This document shows positions 15,095-43,074 of a stretch of DNA of 43,074 nt, piece by piece. The position numbers and the translations under genes are program-made. How positions within the stretch are numbered: position 1 is the stretch's first letter; the number at the start of each line of letters is the position of its first letter. The notes under the pieces are model-generated. The model saw only the letters and a list, made by a program, of their open reading frames with translations. It was not told where the DNA came from and searched no databases. Origin of the DNA: Candidatus Thalassarchaeaceae archaeon (GTDB lineage: Archaea; Thermoplasmatota; Poseidoniia; Poseidoniales; Thalassarchaeaceae); the NCBI GenBank assembly GCA_029942125.1, contig JAPYUB010000001.1, forward strand, positions 1 through 43,074, written 5' to 3'.

Positions 15095-16378
15095 ATGCTG
15101 GACATTCGGATGTTCCGCGAACACGCTGATGTGATTCGCGCAGACCACGACAGACGTGGCCTTTCTCACGATAATATTGATGAGGTTATTCGACTGGATG
15201 AAGCGTGGCGAAAAGCCCGATATGATACCGACCAACTTCGCAGAAAACGCAACGAGGCAGCGCGTGGAATTGCGGCTGCCAAGAAGGCGGGGGATGATGC
15301 GGAATTCCAGAAAATCCGAGTGGAAGTTGACAGTATTGCTGAAGAGATTGAAGCATTGAGTGAAGTTGCTGACGAACACGAGACTGAACGCGATAGAATT
15401 CGCATGTCGATCCCAAACATACTTCATGCCGATGTACCAATCGGTGAGGATGAAGGAGGCAATACCCAACACAGCGTCCATGGTGAAAAACCGGCCTTCG
15501 ATTTTGAGCCGAAAACACACAACGATCTGATTGAGATGAATCGTTGGGTGGACCTACCAAGAGCAGCGAAGATTGCTGGAAGTCGCTTCTACTTCCTCAA
15601 GGGTGATCTCGCACGAATGGAGTTGGCATTGCAGCAATACGCTGTTGATTTCATCGCAGCGAGAGGGTATACATTCGTTCAACCTCCACTTATGATGAAT
15701 CGAGAAGCCTATGAAGGAGTCACCGATCTTGCAGACTTTGAATCCGTGATGTACAACATCCAACCCGATGGATATTACACAATCGCGACAAGTGAACATC
15801 CACTGACAGCGATGTTCATGGATGAGGTGATTGAACCGAGCTTACTTCCCATTAAGATAGTAGGTGTCTCTCCCTGTTTCCGACGTGAAGTCGGAGCGCA
15901 TGGCCAAGGGGACAAAGGCATATGGCGCGTTCATCAGTTCACCAAGATTGAACAGATCATCATCTCGCATCCAGACCATTCATGGGATGCACACGAAGAA
16001 TTGCTGACCAACTGTATCGATCTGTGGGATGGTCTCGGACTCCACTACGAGGTCGTCAACATCTGTACGGGTGACATGGGTACGGTTGCAGCGAAGAAGT
16101 ATGATCTCGAAGCATGGTTGCCGGGACGTGGGGAATACAAAGAAATCGTCTCTTGTTCGAATTGTACAGACTACCAAGCCAATCGATTGAGGATGCGATA
16201 CAGAACCACGGATGGTAATGCTACAGTACACACACTCAACTCAACTGCGGTCGCCACAAGTCGAGCGTTGGTGGCCATTATGGAGCAAAATCAGCTCGCA
16301 GATGGGCGGGTTCGAATCCCCAATGTCTTACAACCCTACATGGGTGGGCAGGAAATGTTGGAATCCTGCAATTGGTAA
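15095..16378 (+). CDS. serS: Serine--tRNA ligase
   Basis: MLDI N-terminus with coiled-coil arm, TSEHP, FRREVG, RVHQFTKIE, EIVSCSNCTDYQA, HTLNSTA. Confidence 0.97.
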   Translation: MLDIRMFREHADVIRADHDRRGLSHDNIDEVIRLDEAWRKARYDTDQLRRKRNEAARGIAAAKKAGDDAEFQKIRVEVDSIAEEIEALSEVADEHETERDRIRMSIPNILHADVPIGEDEGGNTQHSVHGEKPAFDFEPKTHNDLIEMNRWVDLPRAAKIAGSRFYFLKGDLARMELALQQYAVDFIAARGYTFVQPPLMMNREAYEGVTDLADFESVMYNIQPDGYYTIATSEHPLTAMFMDEVIEPSLLPIKIVGVSPCFRREVGAHGQGDKGIWRVHQFTKIEQIIISHPDHSWDAHEELLTNCIDLWDGLGLHYEVVNICTGDMGTVAAKKYDLEAWLPGRGEYKEIVSCSNCTDYQANRLRMRYRTTDGNATVHTLNSTAVATSRALVAIMEQNQLADGRVRIPNVLQPYMGGQEMLESCNW

Positions 16379-34714: not shown

Positions 34715-34893
34715 TTATCAAATAATTTTCAATTGATTAACATAATTTTATTGTCTATCGGAGTCAATTTTTATATTGGCTGATAATGTATTGTTATCAG
34801 CCTTTTTCAATTGAAAATGAACAAATGAACATTTGGGCGTATTATCGAATGTTCAATTGAAAACTATAGGATTATCAGCCTTTTTCAATTGAA
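34715..34893. repeat. AT-rich divergent intergenic island with direct and inverted repeats
   Basis: TTATCAGCCTTTTTCAATTGAA exact at 34794-34815 and 34872-34893; degenerate copies at 34715 and 34842; GGCTGATAA-N7-TTATCAGCC at 34778-34802. Confidence 0.85.
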
Positions 34894-38186: not shown

Positions 38187-40007
38187 ATGGATGAAAATAA
38201 CCGTCGTCAACCCATTGTGGCTGTTCTAGGGCATGTCGACCATGGCAAAACATCTGTCTTGGACTACATTCGTAGTCTAGGTCAAGATCGACAATCAAGC
38301 GTCATGGCTAGAGAGGCAGGGGGAATTACACAACACATCGGTGCGACAGAGGTACCTGCAAAGCTGTTGAATGAATTCTGTAGTCCACTCATGGGTGGAA
38401 AGGAATTCTTGTCACCGGGTTTACTCTTCATTGACACACCAGGTCACCATTCGTTCTCGACCTTACGTACACGAGGTGGTTCCCTAGCAGATATCGCGAT
38501 TCTAGTCATTGATATGATGGAAGGATGCCAACCACAGACGTTAGAATCGATTCGAATCTTGAAGAATGCAAAGACTCCTTTCGTCGTTTGTGCCAACAAA
38601 GTAGATCGAATCCATGGATGGAGGTCTGTAAACGGACGCTCTGCTGCTGAAGCAATGAAGGATCAAGATTCGTATGCCATGGGCTTGTTTGAACAGAAAT
38701 TTTGGCACCTTGTAGGCCAATTTGGTGAGCAGGGATTCAATCTTGATATGTACAACAAAATTTCTGATTTCACTCAAAATATACCCTTAGTACCTTGTTC
38801 TGCAAAAGAGGGGGAAGGGATGCAAGATCTGCTCGCAACCACCATAGGTCTGGCTGAAAAATTCCTTGATGAACAACTCTCTGACGTCGATGGATATTCA
38901 GAGGGAACTGTACTCGAAATGAAAGAAGAACGTGGACTTGGAAAAACGTTGGATGTAATCATGTATCGTGGTCAAATTTCCAAAGGCGATGAAATTGTCG
39001 TCGCAACTAATCAGGGCCCTATGGTCACCAGAGTAAGAGGGCTATTCAGACCTCGAGGCATGGCAGAAATGCGTGATGCTGGAGATCGTTGGGATGCGAT
39101 TGAAACCGTTGAGGCGGCTGCCGGATTGAAATTGGCGGCTCCAGATCTAGATGGGGTTCTTGCAGGCACGACACTCCGGGTTCTGCCAGAAGATGCTGAA
39201 CTACGACAACAAGTGATTGATGCGGCCGAGGATGAATCTGAGATTAGCATCGAATTAGATGAGGAAGAGGGGATTGTCATCAAGGCCGATACGCTTGGAG
39301 GGCTTGAGGCGCTAGCATTCGAATTACACAACCTCGAAAATCCAATTCCAATTCGAAGTGCAGGAATTGGACCGGTCAATAAGCGTGATTTGCGTGGGGC
39401 AGAAAACGCAGCAAATCCATTACAGAGAGTCATTCTTGCATTTAGTACAAGCGTGCAAACGGAAACTGCTGAAGAACTTGAAAAAGAAGATTGTAAAGTA
39501 GAGTATATTGGTTCTGACATCATCTATCATATTCTAGAACAATTTGAGATTTGGACTGAAAATCGAAAGATTGAGTTGGAAAAGGAAAAAAGAGAGAAAA
39601 TTGTTTACCCTGGAAAAATCATCATTCTCACTGATCACATTTTCCGTCGATCAGGACCTGCGGTTGTTGGTGTTCGAATCCTAGGGGGACGACTACACAT
39701 CGGACAACGTCTTATGACAATCGAAGGAAAGAATGTTGGCCAGATTAAATCCATTCGAACTGGAGATACTTCGCACAAGGAGGCGAAGCAAGGAGAAGAG
39801 GTTGCGATTGCGATTCAAGGAGCAACTATCGGACGCGGAATCGATGAAGAGGATGTCCTGCTCGTAGATGTACCCGCAAATCATATCCGAAGACTTCGGA
39901 AACTAGAACTCACTTCTTCCGAACAAGAGATTCTTGACGAACTTACAGCACTGCATCGTGCAGATGACCACAAGAGATGGAAAGATAAGCAAAATGAAAA
40001 ATTCTGA
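38187..40007 (+). CDS. infB: Translation initiation factor IF-2 / aIF5B
   Basis: GHVDHGKT, EAGGITQHIGAT, DTPGH, NKVD, KADTLGGLEAL. Confidence 0.96.
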   Translation: MDENNRRQPIVAVLGHVDHGKTSVLDYIRSLGQDRQSSVMAREAGGITQHIGATEVPAKLLNEFCSPLMGGKEFLSPGLLFIDTPGHHSFSTLRTRGGSLADIAILVIDMMEGCQPQTLESIRILKNAKTPFVVCANKVDRIHGWRSVNGRSAAEAMKDQDSYAMGLFEQKFWHLVGQFGEQGFNLDMYNKISDFTQNIPLVPCSAKEGEGMQDLLATTIGLAEKFLDEQLSDVDGYSEGTVLEMKEERGLGKTLDVIMYRGQISKGDEIVVATNQGPMVTRVRGLFRPRGMAEMRDAGDRWDAIETVEAAAGLKLAAPDLDGVLAGTTLRVLPEDAELRQQVIDAAEDESEISIELDEEEGIVIKADTLGGLEALAFELHNLENPIPIRSAGIGPVNKRDLRGAENAANPLQRVILAFSTSVQTETAEELEKEDCKVEYIGSDIIYHILEQFEIWTENRKIELEKEKREKIVYPGKIIILTDHIFRRSGPAVVGVRILGGRLHIGQRLMTIEGKNVGQIKSIRTGDTSHKEAKQGEEVAIAIQGATIGRGIDEEDVLLVDVPANHIRRLRKLELTSSEQEILDELTALHRADDHKRWKDKQNEKF

Positions 40008-40252: not shown

Positions 40253-41248
40253 ATGTCGGCAGGGATGGCACAAGCAGCAGGCACTGGCCGTACAAAGGAC
40301 CTGATCTCAACTGTCAGTCAAATTTCTCACACACTGATGGGAGAGGTCGCAAAAGTCATTATCGGTAAAGAAGAAAACTTACTTCGTGTAACCGTAGGCA
40401 TTTTGTCCAATGGAAATATGCTCTTGGAAGACTTCCCCGGTCTAGCAAAGACCTTGCTTGCTAATACATTCGCCAAGGCACTTGGCTGCAAATTCAAGCG
40501 TGTACAATTCACGCCTGATTTACTCCCATCTGATATTATGGGGACTTACATGTATGACCAACAAGCTAGTGAATTCAAACTCCGACCTGGCCCTCTGTTC
40601 ACAAACCTACTGCTCGGTGATGAAATCAACCGAGCTCCACCCAAGACTCAAGCCGCACTTCTAGAAGCAATGGAAGAGAAACAAGTAACCATTGAGGGTA
40701 TTACACACAAATTGCCTGCTCCTTTCGTTACAATGGCAACCCAGAACCCAATCGAACAAGAAGGGACCTACCCACTGCCTGAAGCACAGATGGATAGATT
40801 CCTGATGAAGATGTCAATGGGGTATCCAGATCGTGCTGAAGAGAAGGCAATTCTTGCTCGACGTAAGTTGAGAGGAAAGGATGGTCACGATGTCGAACAA
40901 ATTACTTCTCCAAAGAAGGTCGTTGCCATGCAAAAGGCACTGGAAACTGTACACGTGGACCCGGCGATCCTCTCTTACATCGTTGAAGTTGTTCAGCGAT
41001 CTCGTGAGGACCATCGAGTGATTACGGGTGCATCACCTCGAGCCAGTCAATCACTCTTCAAGACCGGGCGCGCATCCGCAGCCATTGATGGTCGCGACTA
41101 TGTAATTCCTGACGATATTAAGCGTGTTGCTCTACAAGTTTGCAGTCATCGTGTATTGCTCAAGCCTGAAGCAAAGATTCGGGGGATTACTGGCATGCAC
41201 ATCATGCGCAAGATTCTCTCTGAAGTACCTGTTCCGGTCATTCAGTAA
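40253..41248 (+). CDS. moxR: MoxR-family AAA+ ATPase
   Basis: PGLAKT, RVQFTPDLLPSD, DEINRAPPKTQAALLEAM, ATQNPIEQEGTYPLPEAQMDRF, GASPR. Confidence 0.94.
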   Translation: MSAGMAQAAGTGRTKDLISTVSQISHTLMGEVAKVIIGKEENLLRVTVGILSNGNMLLEDFPGLAKTLLANTFAKALGCKFKRVQFTPDLLPSDIMGTYMYDQQASEFKLRPGPLFTNLLLGDEINRAPPKTQAALLEAMEEKQVTIEGITHKLPAPFVTMATQNPIEQEGTYPLPEAQMDRFLMKMSMGYPDRAEEKAILARRKLRGKDGHDVEQITSPKKVVAMQKALETVHVDPAILSYIVEVVQRSREDHRVITGASPRASQSLFKTGRASAAIDGRDYVIPDDIKRVALQVCSHRVLLKPEAKIRGITGMHIMRKILSEVPVPVIQ

Positions 41249-41340
41249 TCTTCAGCAAACGATTGGCGAACACTCGATTATGCGAGTGTTTGAAAGAGGG
41301 GCTTGTCTGAGGACGTTGTGTTCTCCCGGAGGTTGTTGAT

Positions 41341-42303
41341 TTGAATCCTTACAATATGGTCATCGCAGTCACCAATCAGAAAGGTGGCTGTGCGAAAACA
41401 ACCACCGCTGTCAATATCGCAACTGCCTTGGCAAAAGGAGACTCGGAGAATGGTTTCCCTCCTGCAAAGGTCTTGCTTGTAGATCTAGATCCTCAGGGAA
41501 ACGCATCAACATCTTTTGGAATTGACAAGAGCAAGTTGGATCGGACTGTGTATAATCTTCTCATGAATGACCTTGGCGAAGAATTGCCAATCCTAGAGGA
41601 CTATCTCCTCGCACCTGAAATGATTACAGATTCGATGCATGATGCGTGGAGGCAATCCAATCCTGACAAGAAAAATGGACCACCGAAAACGATGGGTGTA
41701 AGGAATCTGTGGATTCTACCAAGTAACATCCAATTATCTGGTGCGGAAATAGAGTTGGCCACCCGAATTGGTAGAGAAACACGCCTCAAAGAAGGGTTGA
41801 GTCCTGCCTACGATGAGTTTGATTACATCATCATCGACACACCACCAAGCCTCGGTCTACTCACCATCAATGCCTTGGCTGCAGCTAATTGGGTGTTGAT
41901 TCCGGTACAGACAGAATACTATGCACTTGAGGGTATGAGTCAATTGATGAATTCAATCAAAATGGTTCAAAAAAGAATCAATCCCAATCTCAAGCTATTC
42001 GGAATTGCATTGACAATGTATCAAAAGTCCAAGTTGTGTAATACAGTTGTTGACGAAGTTAGGAAACATTTCACTACACAAGTTTTCAAAACGGTCATTC
42101 CAAGAAATATCGAGGTCGCTGCAGCTCCTTCAGAAGGAGCGCCAATTACTGTCTTGAAGAAACCTACTCGCTCGAACAAAGGTAGTCAGCAATATTGGGC
42201 ACTTGCAAAAGAAGCCCATCGTCGCGTGCTGAAGATTCGTCAAAAATACGGAATCAACGAACCAAACCGACTGAAGCAACATGAACTCCGAACCAAGGAA
42301 TAG
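41341..42303 (+). CDS. parA: ParA/Soj-family ATPase
   Basis: NQKGGCAKTTT deviant Walker A, DLDPQGNAS, IDTPPSLGLLTINAL, PVQTEYYALEG, IPRN; TTG start after GGAGG (alternative ATG at 41356). Confidence 0.92.
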   Translation: MNPYNMVIAVTNQKGGCAKTTTAVNIATALAKGDSENGFPPAKVLLVDLDPQGNASTSFGIDKSKLDRTVYNLLMNDLGEELPILEDYLLAPEMITDSMHDAWRQSNPDKKNGPPKTMGVRNLWILPSNIQLSGAEIELATRIGRETRLKEGLSPAYDEFDYIIIDTPPSLGLLTINALAAANWVLIPVQTEYYALEGMSQLMNSIKMVQKRINPNLKLFGIALTMYQKSKLCNTVVDEVRKHFTTQVFKTVIPRNIEVAAAPSEGAPITVLKKPTRSNKGSQQYWALAKEAHRRVLKIRQKYGINEPNRLKQHELRTKE

Positions 42304-42362
42304 CCTCACAAAAGACCGACACGCTCAAGTTGCTTAGGGCAGGGCTTCGTATCGGTGACAAC

Positions 42363-42605
42363 ATGGGTTCTCCAAACATGACCTCTGTGAGTGTCTCCTT
42401 CGATGTAAGGCGACAACTGAATTCAATGCGAGCAATGGGCAACCACGACAGTGTGGATGAACTCCTAGCACAGGTGCTACAAGAATATCGAATGGCGCAG
42501 CTTCGGGCTGAGGCAGATAAACTACGAAATCGGCTACGAGATATTGGCCAAACAGATATCGAAGCGCTGGTTGAACGATTAGGACATTCTCCTTATGGTG
42601 GTTGA
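42363..42605 (+). CDS. Small putative ribbon-helix-helix DNA-binding protein with coiled-coil tail
   Basis: 80 aa; TSVSVS strand, then FDVRRQLNSMR helix, G turn and SVDELLAQVL helix fit the CopG/RHH pattern. Confidence 0.6.
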   Translation: MGSPNMTSVSVSFDVRRQLNSMRAMGNHDSVDELLAQVLQEYRMAQLRAEADKLRNRLRDIGQTDIEALVERLGHSPYGG

Positions 42606-42855
42606 ATTGAAGGGACAACCTCCAACTTATTCTGTCGATGCGCCCACACTTTTTCGTGGTTTGATGGATGGAGGAAGCAATGCTAGAATTCTTCTTGATC
42701 TGGCTGCGGCAAATGAAATTGAACTTCACGCTGAAGCTAGGGACTGGAATGATCTTTTGTGGCTCATTTCCACTGCATTGAAAGAAACTGGCGGAGCGTA
42801 CTCTGGGGAAGATTATGCTTCACTACGGAACAATATGCCAGTGGTATTTCACTAA
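42595..42855 (+). CDS. Small protein with degenerate PIN-like N-terminal half
   Basis: 86 aa; YSVDAPTLFRGL...ARILLDLAAANEIELH...WNDLL resembles PIN VLDTNVL...A..LL...IEL...EL; overlaps the RHH gene by 11 nt. Confidence 0.5.
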   Translation: MVVELKGQPPTYSVDAPTLFRGLMDGGSNARILLDLAAANEIELHAEARDWNDLLWLISTALKETGGAYSGEDYASLRNNMPVVFH

Positions 42856-43074
42856 TCAGTCCGTGTTTTGTTCAAGCCATTGATGCCCATACCATCGCCA
42901 CTGTTCCATGGTCCAACCCTCTGGGAGGCCACCTGAGGGTAATGGAGGGGCCTCGGCTGGAGGTTCTTGAGTAGAGGGTTGAGGACTAGGCTCAGGAGTG
43001 GCCCCTGAGGCCGTTTCGTCCTCTTCAACCTCTTCAACCTCTTCAACCTCTTCAACCTCTTCAACCTCTTCAAC
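42856..43074 (-). CDS. 3' end of a protein with a (VEE)n/Pro-rich linker and Trp-rich C-terminal motif (partial, runs off the window)
   Basis: Own translation from 43074: (VEE)6 DETASGATPEPSPQPSTQEPPAEAPPLPSGGLPEGWTMEQWRWYGHQWLEQNTD*; TGA at 42856-42858. Confidence 0.8.
   Translation of the reverse strand, partial: VEEVEEVEEVEEVEEVEEDETASGATPEPSPQPSTQEPPAEAPPLPSGGLPEGWTMEQWRWYGHQWLEQNTD
43021..43074. repeat. Perfect 9-bp tandem repeat (CTCTTCAAC) x6, truncated by the window end
   Basis: Directly visible; encodes VEE repeats on the minus strand. Confidence 0.95.

Follow-up and report, generated by a model that had tools for sequence, protein, structure and literature searches.

A ribbon-helix-helix protein and a catalytically disarmed half-PIN protein, probable descendants of a VapBC-type pair, encoded downstream of a Soj-type parA in Poseidoniales

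The DNA analysed here, referred to as the window, is a stretch of 43,074 nucleotides (nt) from Candidatus Thalassarchaeaceae archaeon of the order Poseidoniales (assembly GCA_029942125.1, contig JAPYUB010000001.1, positions 1 to 43,074). Close to one end it carries a cassette of three genes on the same strand, encoding a ParA-type ATPase (ParA1) and two small proteins of 80 and 86 amino acids (aa), orf2 and orf3. Comparison with related genomes strongly supports descent of orf2 and orf3 from a VapBC-type toxin-antitoxin (TA) pair in which the toxin was truncated and its active site was lost. To our knowledge, Poseidoniales and Thalassarchaeaceae are uncultured and are very abundant in the surface ocean. 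Almost nothing is known about DNA segregation in archaea beyond the Sulfolobales and the haloarchaea. The locus would be a clean case of a selfish TA module turned into a conserved cellular component, and the truncated toxin would indicate which parts of the PIN fold are able to persist when binding to proteins is the only function left. The proteins are small and well defined, and can be tested without culturing the organism.

Comparative genomics provided the decisive evidence for the predicted identity of the two small proteins. A search with an orf2 profile over 201 genomes of the phylum gave matches in 41 genomes, 15 of which lie outside the order (E 4.5e-13 to 1e-3). Twelve out-of-order loci from ten other families of the phylum were fetched. 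Each encodes an orf2-like protein of 66-70 aa, and in 11 of the 12 its gene is followed, mostly with a 4-nt overlap, by a gene for a protein of 133-146 aa; no following PIN-size open reading frame (ORF) was seen at the remaining locus (L049). All 11 following proteins match Pfam PIN_2 (best 1.5e-16), PIN_3 and PIN, and all of them are full-length PIN proteins that keep the residues D7, E45, D94 and D112. The proteins in the antitoxin position match RHH_1 in three of 12 cases (best 4.3e-7) and VAPB_antitox in four of 12. An hhalign comparison of orf2 with these antitoxin-position proteins yielded a probability of 98.5 and an E of 3.3e-15, and that of orf3 with the full-length PIN_2 proteins yielded a probability of 97.3 and an E of 1.8e-11. 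Because the latter match covers only PIN residues 4-73, we read orf3 as half of a PIN protein. An initial annotation of the window had suggested a domesticated TA pair, and this suggestion is strongly supported by the profile homology to ribbon-helix-helix (RHH) plus PIN_2 pairs and by the lost catalytic positions. The patchy, mobile distribution of type II TA systems was not found for orf2 and orf3, which are syntenic in 36 of 36 distinct genomes with a ratio of nonsynonymous to synonymous substitutions (dN/dS) of about 0.05.

Direct searches of Pfam and NCBIfam with orf3 gave no significant match. The AlphaFold2 model of orf3, with a predicted local distance difference test (pLDDT) score of 90.3, has the order strand-helix-helix-strand-helix-helix-strand, i.e. 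three strands. The best Foldseek rows were mostly VapC/PIN toxins (best E 0.07), and an exhaustive VIA-align search placed PcrIIC1 first (Z 6.4), followed mostly by VapC/PIN chains (Z 5.3-3.1). The VapC/PIN matches cover only the first ~70-80 residues of those structures. orf3 stops right after a conserved L-P-V-x-W/F stretch, at PIN residue ~73 of ~137, and is truncated after the third strand. The position of PIN D7 is D15 in orf3 and is Asp in 10 of 16 aligned members, the position of E45 is D53 and is acidic in six of 16, and the positions of D94 and D112 lie beyond the end of the protein. The protein had been annotated as keeping the first Asp and as too short for a full active site. The second statement is borne out by the two catalytic Asp positions beyond its end, and the first holds for the orf3 of the window but not for the family. 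None of the invariant residues (A37, E43, W51, N52, L77 and P82) is catalytic. orf3 has also gained an N-terminal peptide of ~10 residues with a conserved basic residue and prolines (K/R-x-P-P). A search of 1.84 billion representatives put 42 of them in the family at E <= 1e-3, and in nearly all cases their length is 48-98 aa; the full-length members have 81-89 aa, and none has the C-terminal PIN half. The family occurs in half-length form only. Measured against PIN nucleases, orf3 shows sequence homology but has neither the complete five-stranded fold nor the four acidic residues. A search of the window's own genome (86% complete) with a full PIN profile found no separate C-terminal half; the profile missed even orf3 itself, and with so remote a profile the search is not a strong test for a split gene.

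orf2 likewise had no significant match in Pfam or NCBIfam; Pfam RHH_1 was detected in only two of 23 members of its family (best E 0.027). PDB sequence searches with orf2 and orf3 returned only chance-level rows. The AlphaFold2 model of orf2 (pLDDT 79.5) contains an extended segment at residues 6-12, helices at residues 13-26 and 31-62, and a third helix. Its best Foldseek rows were RHH proteins (ParD, NikR, CopG, MatP and MazE), with root-mean-square deviations of 1.1-2.1 A over 35-42 residues and E values of at least 1.2, and VIA-align gave Z scores of 5-6.2. The fold matches of both small proteins are statistically weak, as no Foldseek E was <= 0.001 and every Z was < 8, and on their own the structure scores of the two models are below the level for a safe fold match. 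The invariant residues of orf2 are MTS.SVS..RR.LN and S30, and the window's orf2 has Gly at position 26; in the model, orf2 is predicted to have the strand, the two helices and the G-x-x-S type turn of RHH proteins. The model, the top-ranking RHH structures and the homology to antitoxins agree, with modest statistics, with the RHH-like character proposed in the initial annotation. On these data we read orf2 as an RHH protein of VapB-antitoxin descent whose second helix is long and is followed by a third. A lineage-specific C-terminal tail of about nine residues has been gained relative to the TA antitoxins.

Conservation was followed in 41 genomes, comprising 40 relatives and the window's own genome, which represent seven genera and three families of the order. 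The search found orf2 in 39 and orf3 in 38 of these genomes, covering all seven genera and all three families. The misses are artefacts: the orf3 of G025 is present but divergent, as reading of its ORFs showed, the G004 contig breaks off within parA, and so does the G135 contig from a sister genus, and G005 is without the whole locus. The contig ends of G135 (C71) and G004 (C54), which are independent assemblies, lie in the 3' part of parA, and the sequence downstream of parA may resist assembly in some populations. In all 41 fetched loci, from 36 distinct genomes of the three families, the order and strand of a gene for a MoxR-type ATPase, parA, orf2 and orf3 are kept, with orf3 of L024 established by ORF reading. 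This synteny persists where identity has fallen to about 40% in orf2 and to about 32% in orf3. Median dN/dS values from 20 genomes of the genus were 0.042 for ParA, 0.042 for orf2 and 0.049 for orf3; these values are approximate, with a median dS of 1.1-1.5 that is near saturation. Of the checks proposed with the initial annotation, synteny and dN/dS came out in its favor: the small genes adjoin parA in every one of the 36 distinct genomes, and all three genes have a dN/dS of about 0.04-0.05. We conclude that orf2 and orf3 are real genes under strong purifying selection.

ParA1 is a predicted Soj-type deviant Walker A ATPase, nearest to bacterial chromosomal ParA/Soj proteins. It matches Pfam AAA_31 (1.6e-56) and CbiA (2.6e-22), and in a PDB search its closest solved structures were 8ray (2.5e-62), Thermus Soj 1wcv (1.6e-46) and Helicobacter Soj (3.7e-42), with Sulfolobus SegA 7dut at only 5.5e-16. 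One work naming structure 8RAY reportedly concerns ParA activation by bacterial ParB. The Walker A motif KGGCAKTT is invariant in 17 of 17 sequences and includes the signature lysine of the deviant form. The AAA_31 match, the Soj structures and the invariant motif confirm the Soj-like assignment made previously, and two further features that had been pointed out are also present. An insertion around WRQSNPDKKNGPPK amounts to ~31 extra columns relative to the paralogous ParA2 (see below), at about residues 75-106, and the PDB matches of ParA1 are split into two stretches, consistent with this insertion. The basic C-terminal tail was also seen in alignment and is ~20 aa long. At the opposite end of the protein, relatives share the N-terminal sequence MNPY(K/N)M. 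Apart from the tail, neither a further Pfam domain nor a C-terminal sensor domain was detected in ParA1. A search for ParB_N (PF02195), for which the control was positive in 10 of 14 known genomes, gave no match in the window's own genome, none in the two other genomes of its genus that were searched, and matches above the cut-off in six of 70 genomes of the order. The ParB_N protein near parA that characterizes bacterial chromosomal ParABS systems thus appears to be missing. The earlier statement that this ParA has no ParB stands as far as PF02195 matches in its own genome are concerned; it is qualified by a ParA2 partner, encoded elsewhere, with a ParB-like N-terminal peptide, a finding that bears on the refuting condition, set with the initial annotation, of a cognate parB at another place in the genome.

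The coordinates of the three ORFs (Table 1) confirm their annotated placement at 41341-42855. The ATG of orf2 lies 59 nt downstream of parA on the same strand; an alternative TTG start at 42330 would give a protein of 91 aa (42330-42605) and is not conserved as a start. In an alignment of 23 parA-orf2 spacers the length was 63-64 nt in 19 of 20 loci of the genus and 69 nt in one, the GGT of the Shine-Dalgarno (SD)-like motif was invariant, and no AT-rich TATA-like or promoter-like stretch was seen. Because the spacer is short, contains an SD-like motif and has no evident promoter, we infer that parA, orf2 and orf3 are cotranscribed, and moxR probably belongs to the same transcription unit. The moxR-parA spacer is 92 nt long and ends in the GGAGGT that precedes the parA start. 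Six RNA runs contained small shares of the stretch, and contigs from four of them cover parts of parA, orf2 and orf3. One RNA-library contig bridges the orf2/orf3 junction, where DNA carry-over is possible; no contig spans parA-orf2, which is not evidence for separate transcripts. The spacer block ACCGACACGCTCAAGTTGCT is more conserved across the genus than neighboring synonymous sites and is partly kept in other genera. Base pairing is possible between its TCAAGTTGCTT and the AAGCAACATGA in which parA ends (42274-42284), and the block could be an operator or an RNA element. An antisense ORF of 131 aa (42334-42729, minus strand) spans orf2 and orf3; it is most likely spurious because the sense frames are conserved with low dN/dS.

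Table 1. Coordinates of the cassette genes, the parA-orf2 spacer and the upstream neighbor of parA in the window
Feature	Coordinates	Strand	Remarks
MoxR-type AAA+ ATPase	40253-41248	+	Pfam AAA_3 6e-64, AAA_lid_2; upstream neighbor of parA
ParA1	41341-42303	+	320 aa, TTG start; GGAGGT 8 nt upstream
parA-orf2 spacer	42304-42362	+	conserved block ACCGACACGCTCAAGTTGCT; GGTGA Shine-Dalgarno-like motif 5 nt before ATG
orf2	42363-42605	+	80 aa counted from conserved ATG at 42363
orf3	42595-42855	+	86 aa; 11-nt overlap with orf2

ParF-ParG of TP228 and delta-omega of pSM19035 are type Ib partition systems, and the N-terminal tail of ParG stimulates its ParA. Of the known systems compared, the cassette appears to be most like such type Ib and HpaAB-style combinations of a ParA with an RHH protein: it combines a small ParA that has no DNA-binding domain at its N-terminus with a small RHH protein whose gene comes directly after parA on the same strand. 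It differs from these systems in that it has a third gene, for the half-PIN protein, instead of the two-gene layout, no repeats beside its genes, an RHH protein descended from a VapB-type antitoxin, and no flexible N-terminal tail on that protein. In the available part of the report on HpaAB of Haloferax volcanii (PMC13722703), HpaB is described as a centromere-binding RHH protein, encoded downstream of a ParA of bacterial origin, that contacts HpaA through such a flexible N-terminus. SegAB of Sulfolobales, reportedly a pair of a ParA and an RHH adaptor in archaeal DNA positioning (PMC8682754), shares with the cassette an archaeal chromosomal ParA-like ATPase, a small site-specific DNA-binding protein (predicted in the case of orf2) and a third neighboring gene. 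However, bacterial Soj structures match ParA1 at 1e-46 to 1e-62, far better than SegA does (5.5e-16). orf2 is also without the C-terminal signature of SegB, and its membership in that family has to be dropped; as far as the available text of that study goes, SegB homologues occur only in Thermoproteota and a few Euryarchaeota (bioRxiv 10.1101/2025.04.15.649018). The third protein, SegC, encoded next to segAB and a proposed participant, is a ThDP-fold NTPase in the part of the source at hand (PMC11381335), whereas orf3 is PIN-derived. VapBC and FitAB systems resemble orf2-orf3 in gene order, gene overlap, profile homology of both proteins and the RHH and PIN folds. They differ in that orf3 is cut after the third strand with none of the four acidic positions conserved, that orf2 and orf3 are inherited vertically in a core operon with parA and under purifying selection, and that orf2 carries its extra tail of about nine residues. 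A survey of ParA-TA ternary conflict systems (Li, Burroughs, Aravind, bioRxiv 10.64898/2026.10.19.760177) describes, in the portion available, three-gene systems of a ParA and a type II TA pair in which the ParA is fused to a sensor and the toxins work as enzymes; the present cassette has neither a sensor on its ParA nor a toxin with an intact active site. A coarse literature search found no published description of a half-PIN core gene beside parA; it returned many unrelated matches and did not cover preprint supplements, so that this is a weak negative. As far as that search reached, the conservation of a half-PIN as a core gene beside parA has not been described.

The homology, truncation, catalytic loss, gene order and selection are established, and from family knowledge, gene order and precedent a mechanism involving ParA1 can be proposed. 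Most parsimoniously, the genes of an RHH antitoxin and a PIN_2 toxin would have become fixed downstream of an orphan Soj-type parA before the three families diverged. The toxin would have been cut to its N-terminal half with loss of the active site, and both genes would since have stayed under strong purifying selection in a unit transcribed together with parA and probably moxR. A dimer of orf2 would bind DNA via its RHH sheet, as do VapB antitoxins, ParG, omega, SegB and HpaB. The half-PIN would keep only the protein-protein functions of VapC, binding the C-terminal region of orf2 and pairing with itself, and would cross-link RHH dimers into a higher-order DNA-bound complex. ParA1 would position this orf2-orf3-DNA complex on the nucleoid as a cargo or adaptor in the type Ib manner, and the complex would probably also repress its own operon. 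We put the chance that the exapted pair acts with ParA1 in this way at a little short of even. A more specific version is a partition adaptor of a new class, in which the RHH dimer marks a chromosomal site and the half-PIN, left with no more than the surfaces by which VapC binds its antitoxin and dimerizes, multimerizes the complex, docks on the ParA1 tail and controls the ATPase, docking either through its K/R-x-P-P peptide or together with the C-terminal tail of orf2. We consider this version unlikely; if it were true, these abundant ocean archaea would have a three-part segregation or positioning machine in parallel to the ParA2 system with its ParB-like-peptide adaptor. Modeling of a complex of two orf2, two orf3 and ParA1, the last as the scored partner, gave a score of 0.00 (mark 0.32), in a run without controls and with five chains, which is outside the calibration of the tool; the score speaks neither for nor against binding.

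The second Soj-type ParA, ParA2, is encoded with its partner on contig C60 of the same genome (L065:1327-2690) and matches PDB 1wcv at 4.8e-51. ParA2 has 313 aa with an N-terminal extension of ~55 aa, and the stop codon of its gene overlaps an ORF of 147 aa. The 147-aa protein begins with a Gly/Arg/Leu-rich peptide that we take to resemble the ParA-activating N-terminus of bacterial ParB. Searches with it found no ParB_N or other Pfam domain and no PDB relative. Of the 41 relatives, 37 have it, and where contigs are long its distance from the ParA1 locus is 30-60 kb. The protein may be a minimal ParB substitute, and the genomes may run two ParA systems side by side. In G210, a genome of a streamlined sister genus, the ORF after ParA2 (L059:487-1473, minus strand) starts with a similar ParB-like peptide, and a domain of EamA transporters comes next (Pfam 5.6e-19). 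A membrane protein may have acquired a ParA-binding peptide here, or the ORF may have been called too long from an upstream TTG.

Several results weigh against a partnership of the pair with ParA1, and they have to be considered together with the alternative that the exapted pair is a transcription regulator only, with orf2 as the repressor and the half-PIN as co-repressor of their own operon or of other genes, and with a merely historical position after parA and no contact with ParA1. In all seven genomes examined from five sister genera (g10-g14; same family, 1.3-1.6 Mb, >90% complete), ParA1 is kept beside moxR without orf2 and orf3. Unrelated genes directly follow ParA1 there, convergently in four of the five loci read, and the orf2 profile had no match in 10 whole genomes sampled from these genera. 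ParA1 can therefore do without the pair. The ancestral pairs in turn have no ParA neighbor, as none was found within about 4 kb at any of the 12 out-of-order loci. In orf2 the conserved strand is preceded by no more than five residues, and certain family members start at a Met directly before it, so that a flexible N-terminal ParA-stimulating tail is absent. All three observations favor a regulator, as does the conserved noncoding block just upstream of orf2, which could be its operator. RHH antitoxins of type II TA systems are autorepressors, and VapBC shows conditional cooperativity; DNA binding of this autoregulatory kind would explain the conservation of orf2 without any link to ParA. Also on the unfavorable side are the weak fold statistics and the near-saturated dS given above, the ParA2 system as an at least equal candidate for chromosome segregation, and the sequence around the cassette (41200-42900), in which no direct or inverted repeat arrays or iterons were found besides the downstream coding-sequence repeats. 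Regulation alone accounts less readily for an order and strand that the 36 distinct genomes all share despite protein divergence of up to 60%, for the short SD-led spacer without an evident promoter of its own, and for the ParA1 tail, which co-occurs with the pair. The long tail is present in eight of nine divergent genomes with orf2 and orf3 and in none of five aligned genomes without them, and the ParA match also ends near residue 300 in G122 and G174, which have neither gene. A single deletion that took the 3' end of parA together with orf2 and orf3 would account for the absence of the tail as well as of the pair, and if that is what happened the co-loss is no evidence of a functional link. 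As known type Ib adaptors also autorepress, regulation and the adaptor role are not mutually exclusive. We regard a purely regulatory role as a distinct possibility that we nevertheless doubt.

The remaining explanations appear far less probable. In a ParA-TA ternary conflict system, the ParA switch would free the toxin on sensing an invader. Such three-gene combinations of a ParA and a type II TA pair exist, and MoxR, whose gene is next door here, belongs to a family also used in conflict systems (bioRxiv 10.64898/2026.10.19.760177, as far as the available part goes). In that same part, however, the surveyed ParA proteins carry a C-terminal sensor and the six toxin classes do not include PIN, whereas ParA1 ends in its tail of ~20 aa. 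orf3 is also without half of the fold and without conserved catalytic residues, the locus is a syntenic core locus under purifying selection across the order, unlike patchy, fast-evolving defense islands, and PADLOC matched none of ParA, orf2, orf3 and MoxR. PADLOC did not match one out-of-order TA pair either. Immunity is in our view a very improbable function. That the pair is a still-active VapBC, with orf3 as a small RNase and orf2 as its antitoxin, would agree with the RHH gene followed by an overlapping PIN-like gene, with the homology to VapBC-like pairs, and with the acidic residues that the window's orf3 keeps at two of four positions, D15 and D53. It is barely credible in view of a C-terminal half with two catalytic Asp that every family member lacks and that a (distant) full PIN profile did not find elsewhere in the 86% complete genome, of D15 and D53 being conserved in only 10 and six of 16 members, respectively, and of a vertical and syntenic rather than patchy distribution. 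A final alternative makes the 147-aa protein beside ParA2 the true partner of ParA1, at a distance of 30-60 kb, and orf2 and orf3 accessory or unrelated. Both ATPases are of the Soj type, the 147-aa protein is widely conserved (37/41) with its N-terminus resembling the activating ParB peptide, and the nearest solved relative of ParA1, 8ray, is linked to work on ParA activation by ParB. Against this, adjacency and overlap assign the 147-aa protein to ParA2, and it matched no ParB_N or other Pfam domain and no PDB structure. We judge this arrangement quite improbable.

The SegAB-analogous role in segregation that was proposed in the initial annotation is putative, and the absence of flanking repeats, the persistence of ParA1 without the pair and the second ParA system weigh against it. 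Centromere sites away from the cassette are possible. Proximity to an origin was considered and set aside, as the distance between Orc1/Cdc6 genes and the cassette is 119-152 kb in three f3-family genomes, too loose to serve as evidence. In G210, which is without orf2 and orf3, the corresponding distance to ParA1 would be about 0.6-0.65 Mb, provided that the one ~1.6-Mb contig of this genome is circular.

CAATTG palindrome arrays had been put forward as candidate centromere sites. The arrays are real and are conserved in the genus. CAATTG occurs 36 times in the window, compared with 22.9 +/- 4.9 expected, and none of 100 shuffles reached 36. The AT-rich sequence that separates a class-III aminotransferase gene from a gene for a 203-aa protein (34728-34893) contains four CAATTG palindromes, three of them as exact TTCAATTGAA (34806-34893), as well as two copies of TTATCAGCCTTTTTCAATTGAA. 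Exact TTCAATTGAA has 12 sites in the 1.83-Mb assembly, including these three. The paired palindromes were matched in 10 of 23 genus genomes searched, with the palindromes kept and the spacers varying. In nine of these 10 genomes they lie 7.4-8.5 kb from orf2 on the same contig, and in the tenth the two are on different contigs. The same paired palindrome is also found at other loci and contigs, and nothing ties it to orf2; we rejected the arrays as evidence for a centromere and keep them as a lead. Pairs of CAATTG ~20 nt apart also occur at 16369/16389, 19262/19283, 29466/29486 and 38142/38163, three at gene boundaries and one inside an ORF. CAATTG may be a widespread operator or terminator-associated motif.

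The earlier description of the context as core chromosome without mobility genes is supported by the Pfam matches of the neighbors, all of which are core genes (MoxR, NDK, L7Ae, PRPP synthetase and deoxyhypusine synthase). MoxR adjoins ParA in all 41 fetched loci and also in the genomes without orf2 and orf3. The 606-aa ORF at 38187-40007 reads like an aIF5B-like GTPase, an assignment made from the sequence alone. Downstream of orf3, a convergent gene extends on the minus strand from 42856-43074 onward to ~45446 (G000:C1) and encodes a secreted-looking protein of ~864 aa. The C-terminal part of this protein contains repeats rich in Glu and Val, for which a 9-nt tandem repeat at 43006-43068 codes. 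In families f1 and f3, most of the loci read have a convergent gene for a large protein, of about 800-865 aa, after orf3.

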